DNA of 64,000 bases from Escherichia phage ev_rybdy3. This document shows positions 39,482-40,795 of this stretch, piece by piece (position 1 is the first letter of the stretch; each line of letters begins with the position of its first letter). The DNA is taken from the sequence record PQ819470.1; one strand, given 5' to 3'. The translations under genes and the position numbers were made by a program. Below the pieces are notes generated by a model. That model made no database searches and was not told the origin of the DNA. It saw only the letters and a list, made by a program, of their open reading frames with translations.

Positions 39482-40795
39482 ATGATTGTTATCCCGATTA
39501 ACCAAATTGAAGATAAGGTTGCTCAACAACCTGATATCTCTGTTGGTCGTCACTTCATTGAACAGTTGATTAACAACAACTTGATTCCAGATGGTATCTG
39601 TCCCATCATTACTGGTGGGGCTGTTCGTGATGCTGTCCTTAATAACATAGCTCCACATGACATTGATATCTTTATTGTCAGAGGACAAACACCAAGAACT
39701 CAAAACACTTTCATCCCAACTGATCGTTGGCAAGAGCTTGGACGGGAGATTGAAAGTAATGTGAAGGAATGGCTAGAGTCACAAGATATTGAATATGCAT
39801 CACTTCTTGCTGAAGCTACAAACGAATCCTATGCTGGGGGTTCTCAATTAACATTCACTGATATTATTGAGTTTCAGTGGAATGGGGTTCGTATCCAATT
39901 CATGTTTAATTATCCTACTTCTATTGAAGAGGTATTGGATAATTTTCCTATGATGTGCCGTGGTGCGATGACTCTTGACAACTTATTCATGACTTCTCAC
40001 GGATATTTGGCTATGACTTCCCCTTGTCCAGTGGTTGTCTCTAGTCGTGAAATCAGGTATGTTCACAAGAAGTGGCCTAACTCACAAGTGTTGAGATTTT
40101 CCTCTCCAGCAGTTGCGCATCAATACATGGCCCAAACTCGATATCTTCCCACACCTCAGCCAGTTAGTCATCTAGTCAATGGATTAGGTCAGGTTTCTCT
40201 TATTGAAGATACAACAAGTGCTCTATATTGTGTTAACCGAGACATGAGTCGATTCTTTGGAATCCCTTATGAAGAGATTCAGATTATGTCTAGTCTTCAC
40301 GGTTCTGGTCAGATTCATGCGTATTGGTCTGAGGGGTTGACAAATTTAACGACTAACACGGGTGGTGATCTGCTTGGTCGAGAAGAGGAACCTAACCGAC
40401 ACAATGCAATTGAAGGGGTGTTTGTAGCCCCTGCAATGCGTCGAGCACAAGAGTCACGAAGAGAAAGCCCTACTCGTAGAACATCTTTTGAAGAAGCTCT
40501 TGGTATTACAAGTGATTCTATGGAGCGATGGATGGCTAGACCCTCTCGTGGTCGACCAAACGGCTTAACTGTTAGCGCACGTCAGTTCTCTGGTCAGGGT
40601 TTCGCTGTTGGTGATATCAACGCACCTGTTAGGGCTGTGTGGGCTGATGAAGATATGGAACAGGATTTGGGAGATAGTCTCGCTGATCAATTTGTTGCCA
40701 ACAACCCTGAAGTATTAGAACCTCAAACCCGTACAGTTCGGTTTGCCGATGAAGCGGGTCGTGGAATCTCTTTTGAAATAGACGAAAATAACTAA
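39482..40795 (+). CDS. Pol-beta-type nucleotidyltransferase (CCA-adding enzyme / poly(A) polymerase-like head domain)
   Basis: ITGGAVRDAVLNNIAPHDIDIFIV matches GGxVRD...D-x-D head-domain signature; C-terminal half unrecognised. Confidence 0.45.
   Translation: MIVIPINQIEDKVAQQPDISVGRHFIEQLINNNLIPDGICPIITGGAVRDAVLNNIAPHDIDIFIVRGQTPRTQNTFIPTDRWQELGREIESNVKEWLESQDIEYASLLAEATNESYAGGSQLTFTDIIEFQWNGVRIQFMFNYPTSIEEVLDNFPMMCRGAMTLDNLFMTSHGYLAMTSPCPVVVSSREIRYVHKKWPNSQVLRFSSPAVAHQYMAQTRYLPTPQPVSHLVNGLGQVSLIEDTTSALYCVNRDMSRFFGIPYEEIQIMSSLHGSGQIHAYWSEGLTNLTTNTGGDLLGREEEPNRHNAIEGVFVAPAMRRAQESRRESPTRRTSFEEALGITSDSMERWMARPSRGRPNGLTVSARQFSGQGFAVGDINAPVRAVWADEDMEQDLGDSLADQFVANNPEVLEPQTRTVRFADEAGRGISFEIDENN

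Follow-up and report, generated by a model that had tools for sequence, protein, structure and literature searches.

A core nucleotidyltransferase of Kuravirus phages with a class-II-like head, a divergent architecture and a putative remote link to the anti-Gabija protein Gad2

Escherichia phage ev_rybdy3 (PQ819470.1), of which a stretch of 64,000 nucleotides (the window) was analysed, is a Kuravirus of the phiEco32/SU10 group and carries a nucleotidyltransferase gene that is the orthologue of phiEco32 gp73 and SU10 CDS74 (PHROG 12715). The catalytic head of the encoded protein is class-II-like, yet its motifs, Pfam score and predicted structure indicate that the Kuravirus protein is not a CCA-adding enzyme. 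The reading favoured here, tentatively and short of being probable, is that of an active nucleotidyltransferase from a phage branch comprising Gad2 and phrog_1614, which would be co-expressed with the replication genes and would serve to counter a host defence. The gene itself is already known: RefSeq Kuravirus records label it “nucleotidyltransferase”, and the label “nucleotidyltransferase / class II CCA-adding-enzyme domain” has been attached to it since at least 2014. Only the divergent architecture and the Gad2 link are new here.

A preliminary description, made from the letters of the stretch, had recognised the class-II head signature GGAVRD...DIDIF in the N-terminal part of the protein, and this reading is borne out. 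GGAVRD occupies residues 45–50 (nucleotides 39,614–39,631) and is followed by DIDIF at residues 60–64 (39,659–39,673); the signature is invariant in the family, and the fold searches return nucleotidyltransferases throughout. Across 40 aligned family sequences, M1, G45, G46, R49, D50, D60, D62, F64, I128, and Q139 are invariant, and W97, E99, Y117, M141, P156, Y193, K197, and P199 are nearly so. Because G45, G46, R49, D50, D60, and D62 stay invariant down to ~23% identity, motif A is not a chance match. When the family was compared by hhalign with class-II sequences drawn from the E. coli genome and PDB alignments, the match was confident over motif A alone (91.9%, E 6.9e-7, 19 columns), and motif A alone was likewise aligned with the single E. 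coli Cca sequence.

The family is small. A word-indexed search recovered Kuravirus orthologues only (74–98% identity), while HMMER, run exhaustively against 1.84 billion cluster representatives, returned 31 proteins in total, every one aligned from residue 1 and with identities reaching down to ~23%; no canonical CCA-adding enzyme appeared in that search at E ≤ 1e-3. In cultured phages, 97 records contain the gene, all of them from Escherichia or Shigella Gordonclarkvirinae. A PDB sequence search with the nucleotidyltransferase gave noise only, NCBIfam and PADLOC gave no match, and no biochemical study of the Kuravirus gene or of its small phage homologues turned up in literature searches.

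The predicted structure extends the likeness to class-II enzymes over the head. With a deep alignment including distant relatives, AlphaFold modelled residues 1–300 confidently (predicted local distance difference test (pLDDT) 88, predicted template modelling score (pTM) 0.85); this depth was needed, as 20 close Kuravirus sequences alone gave a pLDDT of 31. Over residues ~146–300, pLDDT is mostly 85–96 up to about residue 280 and 45–68 over residues 281–300. Every one of the best 42 Foldseek matches in the PDB is either a class-II enzyme that adds CCA, CC or A or a poly(A) polymerase, at E values of 3e-5 to 1.7e-3 and template modelling (TM) scores of only 0.3–0.4, and superposition on class-II enzymes takes in 143–165 of the 300 modelled residues. 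Fold matches in BFVD are “PolyA polymerase head” phage proteins of 170–250 residues from phiKMV-, gh-1-, PP2-, and Cd1-like podophages. As modelled, the head is class-II-like, and what follows it does not correspond to the neck, body or tail of class II. The preliminary description had left some 300 residues unrecognised; this holds for residues 301–437, which match nothing, and fails for residues ~146–300, which are predicted to be folded and whose initial ~120 residues align with the Gad2 family (to residue 263).

The same description had called the protein CCA-adding-like, which is apt for the head and does not extend to the rest of the enzyme. In the proposed check against PolyA_pol (PF01743), the window protein scored 18.8 bits and three orthologues 17.8–21.9 bits, below the gathering score of 23, and the match covers only profile positions 3–85 of 126. 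In class-II enzymes, the RRD of motif B recognises the ribose 2'-OH and the EDxxR of motif D serves as the amino-acid template for CTP and ATP. At the position of RRD (from “DLxRRDFTxNA”), the chained profile alignments place N154-F-P156 in columns of low confidence, and R160 within the equivalent element LDNFPMMCRGAM is not kept in distant family members; a low-confidence alignment puts P183-V-V-V186 at the position of EDxxR. Independently of any alignment, neither RRD nor EDxxR is conserved anywhere in the 40 family sequences. The position of the third carboxylate (the Glu of “YEVTTFR”) appears to be held by the invariant Gln139, again in low-confidence columns of the chained profile alignments; the residue of the Bst CCA-adding enzyme aligned with Gln139 is presumably E79. 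The hairpin that holds Gln139 also holds the invariant I128 and residue 127, which is always acidic and lies on the strand adjoining Gln139. D127 was considered as the third carboxylate and dropped, as the chained profile alignments put Gln139 there; R-D-x-x-Y (residues 189–193) was considered as a motif D variant and dropped, as R189...Y193 stands opposite class-II “R-A-V-R-F”.

Differences in architecture point the same way. The all-helical neck, body, and tail domains that receive the tRNA acceptor and T-arm are not found in the model, and the loop leading from the catalytic hairpin to the motif-B helix in class-II enzymes and bacterial poly(A) polymerase I (PAP I) is deleted in the Kuravirus protein. 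The layout of PAP I, a class-II head and neck with a basic C-terminal region, is not found either: the basic C-terminal RNA-binding region is missing, and the Kuravirus tail has a net charge of −9.

These results bear on the roles that the preliminary description had offered, namely tRNA 3'-end repair or RNA tailing, in which C, A or other nucleotides would be added to 3' ends in order to mend tRNAs hit by CCA-trimming or tail-cleaving defences, or to tail RNAs for decay. The nearest solved structures, which belong without exception to class-II enzymes that add CCA, A or poly(A), and the shared form of motif A (GGAVRD...DxD) speak for such a role, as does the existence of immunity that cleaves tRNA tails, for example, by Cas12a3; the small phage relatives, moreover, often bear the label tRNA nucleotidyltransferase, and their enrichment in Pectobacterium phages suggests host-specific pressure. 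Against it stand the family-wide absence of motifs B and D, the lack of a neck, body or tail domain for the tRNA elbow, the sub-threshold Pfam score and the absence of any CCA-adding enzyme from the exhaustive search. The supposition that the phage has tRNA genes proved right only in that one exists: tRNA-Arg(TCT) is the sole phage tRNA, the phage genome itself encodes the 3' CCA of this tRNA, and the E. coli host has its own Cca. Repair of tRNA ends is no longer the reading with the best support, and is considered unlikely. The exonuclease encoded upstream was considered as an RNase D/T-like partner in tRNA-end turnover and set aside, its match being to the exonuclease part of T7 DNA polymerase. 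For annotation, the labels “Class II CCA-adding enzyme domain” and “tRNA nucleotidyltransferase” should not be taken to imply CCA-adding activity here.

The longest alignment of the Kuravirus family among the three families with which it was compared is that with Gad2. Most Kuravirus orthologues carry a precomputed Pfam label PF26128 “Gad2”, graded weak, and an N-terminal Gad2 profile of nine sequences (SPbetaL7 Gad2, OQ921347.1, 109,563–110,765, plus eight homologues) aligned with the Kuravirus family by hhalign at 93.8% (E 1.7e-7) over 187 columns (residues 21–263). The corresponding comparison with the small nucleotidyltransferases (NTases) of Autographiviridae gave 89.7% (E 1.8e-6, 126 columns); the small NTases matched class II at 96.7% (E 4.4e-10, 132 columns) and Gad2 matched class II at 73.3% (E 3e-5, 138 columns). 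The Kuravirus protein matched phrog_12715 over its full length (E 1.2e-244, residues 1–437 against profile positions 1–457) and matched phrog_1614 by HMMER over residues 35–155 (E 1.6e-7). The latter family acts as a hub, being matched also by Gad2 (8.2e-6), GAP32_076 (4.9e-9), and SW23_034 (2.1e-7).

Gad2 and the Kuravirus protein are both phage proteins of ~400 residues with an N-terminal PolyA_pol-like nucleotidyltransferase domain, and they share features in which class II differs. Gln (in Gad2, Gln or Glu) appears to take the third-carboxylate position, an F-[DP]...C-x-G-A element (FDFTVCMGAF in Gad2) replaces RRD, and an R...Y motif follows; this motif, R-[DE]-x-x-Y-x-x-[KR]-K-x-P in the Kuravirus family, is aligned opposite “LRVQKY..K” of Gad2 as well as the class-II “R-A-V-R-F”. 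The two also differ, as Gad2 has GGAITS where the Kuravirus protein has the class-II GGAVRD, and Gad2 comes from a temperate Bacillus phage in which its anti-defence locus is swappable; the present gene, by contrast, is a core replication-module gene. Because the C-terminal halves are unrelated and no direct HMMER link to the Gad2 PHROGs was found, the protein is placed, on sequence comparison, in a putative Gad2/phrog_1614 superfamily and not in the Gad2 family proper. A related-locus search with Gad2 returned close relatives only. A 79-kb E. coli phage with a true Gad2 homologue was considered as a Kuravirus with a swapped locus and rejected, as it is a Vequintavirinae fragment.

The phrog_1614 small NTases comprise phiKMV gp16, LKD16 ORF16, PP2 gp18, Emajogi gp22, and the gh-1 protein. 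They share motif A with the Kuravirus protein, have likewise lost both Arg residues of RRD (x-F-D), and, in T7-supergroup podophages, have helicase, ligase, and polymerase genes around them. In contrast to the 437-residue Kuravirus protein with its extra domains, they are essentially head-only proteins of 180–255 residues, retain Asp at the third-carboxylate position and lie nearer to true class-II enzymes, and their distribution is sporadic and host-associated, whereas the Kuravirus gene is core. The Emajogi homologue has been reported to be toxic on overexpression (2026 preprint). A homologue search from LKD16 ORF16 found two proteins only.

The favoured reading of the Kuravirus protein builds on this placement. 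It would be a template-independent nucleotidyltransferase of a phage-specific branch of the class-II (PolyA_pol-head) superfamily, a branch that would also include the anti-Gabija protein Gad2 and the small Autographiviridae replication-module NTases. It would be made alongside the replication proteins and would move a nucleotide onto some acceptor, though not onto the CCA end of a tRNA. On the model of Gad2, this transfer might disarm Gabija or another host nuclease defence of the kind that responds to DNA ends or to nucleotide levels, and the C-terminal tail would probably dock the enzyme to a partner. Gad2 has been shown to be needed by SPbetaL7 for Gabija resistance and is a predicted nucleotidyltransferase, and a Brevibacillus Gad2 homologue suffices alone to block Gabija.

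Several points weigh against this proposal. The homology to Gad2 is remote (~15% identity, a probability below 95%, and thin profiles), HMMER gave no direct match of the Kuravirus protein to Gad2 PHROGs 18122, 27100, and 4400, and hhalign gave a probability of 0.0 between Kuravirus tails and Gad2 C-termini, so that the two proteins are unrelated in their C-terminal halves. Being core to its lineage and not a swappable accessory, the gene is atypical of anti-defence genes, and Gln at the third metal-ligand position could lower or change catalysis. A 2026 review lists the mechanism of Gad2 as unelucidated, and the analogy would thus predict a role and not a chemistry; the BASEL study, for its part, did not include Gordonclarkvirinae against Gabija. 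Two open questions meet in this protein, namely the route by which Gad2 gets past Gabija and the resistance of Gordonclarkvirinae to restriction–modification (RM) systems with no known modification or inhibitor. A core Gad2 relative in E. coli phages that infect K-12 derivatives (BASEL Bas86–94) would be tractable for identifying acceptor and nucleotide, within a branch that takes in the nucleotidyltransferases of phiKMV- and gh-1-like phages.

An alternative in which the protein is catalytically impaired and acts by binding, for instance as a decoy or regulator, takes its cue from the invariant Gln aligned with the third catalytic carboxylate and from the strongly acidic character of the protein (net charge −22, pI 4.8). 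The invariance of GG, R49, D50, and D60-x-D62 to ~23% identity is hard to explain without nucleotide and metal binding, and the always-acidic residue 127 on the neighbouring strand also counts against this alternative. Since E. coli Cca likewise has an acidic head, net charge was dropped as an uninformative clue to the substrate. Such a protein is judged extremely unlikely.

The gene reads from ATG at 39,482 to TAA at 40,793–40,795, and its start lies a single base past the stop of the upstream exonuclease gene (TAA-A-ATG). The true start is 39,482 and not an in-frame GTG at 39,425, because every homologue begins with M-I-x-I-P. The gene is 100% identical in Escherichia phage ev_rybdy8 (PQ819471.1, labelled “nucleotidyltransferase”) and 93–98% identical in ES17, SU10, and other Gordonclarkvirinae. 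Against the orthologues of phiEco32, YF01, and XT18 (SU10, whose gene had been wrongly trimmed, being left out), the ratio of nonsynonymous to synonymous substitution rates (dN/dS) is 0.19–0.22 overall, 0.10–0.22 in the head, 0.11–0.19 over residues 146–300, 0.06–0.47 over residues 301–375, and 0.6–1.6 over residues 376–437; these ratios show most of the protein to be under purifying selection.

The C-terminal tail is made up of an Arg/Ser-rich part (residues 301–375), a hypervariable acidic linker (376–400), and a conserved end motif (400–437, nucleotides 40,679–40,792). Among orthologues, the linker carries in-frame indels of 48–57 nucleotides. Residues 301–437 are of low hydrophobicity, their final ~38 residues are conserved, and no match to them was found in Pfam, the PDB, PHROG or the Gad2 C-terminus. 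The tail is probably disordered.

Table 1. Features of the nucleotidyltransferase gene and of associated loci, in window coordinates.
Feature	Position	Strand	Extent, basis or remarks
Kuravirus nucleotidyltransferase, complete coding sequence	39482..40795	+	437 residues plus stop; open reading frame and translation
Catalytic head domain, class-II / PolyA_pol-like fold	39482..39916	+	Residues 1–145
Motif A: GGAVRD (residues 45–50), then metal-binding D60-x-D62 in DIDIF (residues 60–64)	39614..39673	+	
Beta-hairpin FTDIIEFQW-NG-VRIQFMF	39854..39907	+	Residues 125–142; strands 125–133 and 136–143 in the model
Folded alpha/beta-then-helical region, family-specific	39917..40381	+	Residues 146–300
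Motif B equivalent LDNFPMMCRGAM	39935..39970	+	Residues 152–163; hhalign alignments
Motif R-[DE]-x-x-Y-x-x-[KR]-K-x-P	40046..40078	+	Residues 189–199; start of the post-head helical region
C-terminal tail	40382..40792	+	Residues 301–437; composition, charge, indels
3'-5' proofreading exonuclease subunit, T7-like DNA polymerase	38923..39480	+	PF01612, E 2e-8
dCTP deaminase, downstream neighbour	40805..41338	+	PF22769, E 3.7e-34
tRNA-Arg(TCT)	22545..22620		Sole phage tRNA; genome-encoded 3' CCA (…GGGCGCACCA)

The order gp4-like primase-helicase, exonuclease subunit, nucleotidyltransferase, and dCTP deaminase is kept in six of six independent contexts, down to ~24% identity. The exonuclease subunit (185 residues) matches T7 gp5 residues 3–178 at E 1e-11. 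The T7-like DNA polymerase is split, its polymerase gene (48,661–50,505, 614 residues) lying 9 kb downstream of the exonuclease subunit; in that gene residues 361–611 alone match DNA_pol_A (positions 143–380), and the first 246 residues have no PDB sequence match.

This setting could also be read as that of a replisome accessory, tethered by its tail to polymerase or helicase, which would extend or cap primers or DNA 3' ends of the linear genome. The gene directly adjoins that of the exonuclease subunit, with the gp4-like primase-helicase gene further upstream, and is a core lineage gene; the primase-helicase has, as does T7 gp4, an acidic tail with an aromatic last residue (here SPW or SPF), and several nucleotidyltransferase homologues end in W or F or carry “SPWF”. 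The tail motif varies across the family, however, and T7 and most of its relatives are not known to use such an enzyme in replication. This role is regarded as very unlikely. The primase-helicase of the window (37,139–38,929) and those of two relatives compared with it (L003, 7716–9509; L004, 1372–3162) have an acidic C-terminal tail whose last residue is aromatic (…GASPW, …KSPF, …KSPW), like the tail by which T7 gp4 docks to the polymerase. Among the distant nucleotidyltransferase homologues (P0046–P0077), 8 of ~30 end in W, F or Y, and two further homologues have “SPWFGTR” in a phage whose helicase ends in “SPF”. To judge from these sequences, the tails of helicase and nucleotidyltransferase may share a docking motif.

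The adjoining dCTP deaminase suggests a further alternative, in which the enzyme would act in DNA modification or on the nucleotide pool, and a covalently altered genome, or altered DNA ends, would confer RM resistance. The authors of the BASEL study point to the locus of dCTP deaminase and nucleotidyltransferase, and describe Gordonclarkvirinae as unusually RM-resistant with no known modification pathway. The adjacency of the two genes is invariant, and with the loss of the RRD that senses the ribose 2'-OH, dNTPs might be accepted. The sites of EcoRI, EcoRV, EcoKI, and EcoP1 are not strongly avoided in the window: EcoRV (32 observed against 20 expected), EcoKI (7 against 7), and EcoP1 (87 against 102) are not depleted and EcoRI (11 against 23) is only about halved, so that site avoidance alone would not suffice for RM resistance. 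No DNA-modification pathway is known to use a class-II-type nucleotidyltransferase; moreover, the ThyX and dNMP kinase of the phage suit an ordinary dTTP supply for a genome of 42% GC, the small Autographiviridae homologues have no adjoining dCTP deaminase, and the adjacency may be merely positional. This alternative, too, seems quite unlikely.

A more specific proposal, held to be decidedly unlikely, would join several of these strands: the nucleotidyltransferase, replisome-associated and Gad2-related, would have lost ribose discrimination and would nucleotidylate phage DNA, 3' ends or replication intermediates against Gabija and RM systems. If this were true, a DNA-nucleotidylating transferase would be the missing factor in the broad resistance of Gordonclarkvirinae to restriction and nucleases, and DNA nucleotidylation would also show the chemistry of the Gad2 family.

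Some palindromes are avoided across the window (1–64,000) relative to an order-2 Markov expectation, namely CCWGG (6 observed against 88), GATC (150 against 310), CTGCAG (0 against 19), GGATCC (1 against 11), and GGTACC (1 against 12).

Small relatives likewise lie among replication genes in phiKMV, LKD16, PP2, gh-1, S. thermophilus SW23, and J2-1, with members of the Gad2 family adjoining a single-stranded DNA-binding protein gene in S. thermophilus SW23 and a ligase gene in J2-1. In Krylovirinae, Melnykvirinae, and Studiervirinae the small NTase always stands amid primase/helicase, ligase, and DNA polymerase genes (loci L007, 9703–10,302; L008, 2480–3097; L009, 2438–2983; L010, 2438–2992; L011, 2441–3205), and in PP2 its gene and the polymerase gene overlap, at the start of the latter.

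At ~29,500–36,900, a short way upstream of the replication genes, the annotation of the identical phage PQ819471.1 lists a COOH-NH2 ligase, an amidoligase, a glutamine amidotransferase, an ATP-grasp “S6 glutaminyl transferase”, and a gamma-glutamyl cyclotransferase. This cluster is kept in distant relatives (L003, L016) and could be relevant to RM resistance. Relatives carry inserted HNH homing-endonuclease genes at different places within their replication and nucleotide-metabolism module, which is otherwise syntenic (L019, 4862–5371; L004, 6349–6843 and 8119–8610; L003, 16,058–16,555); in L019 the HNH gene directly follows the dCTP deaminase gene, whose product has 7 extra residues (184 against 177).

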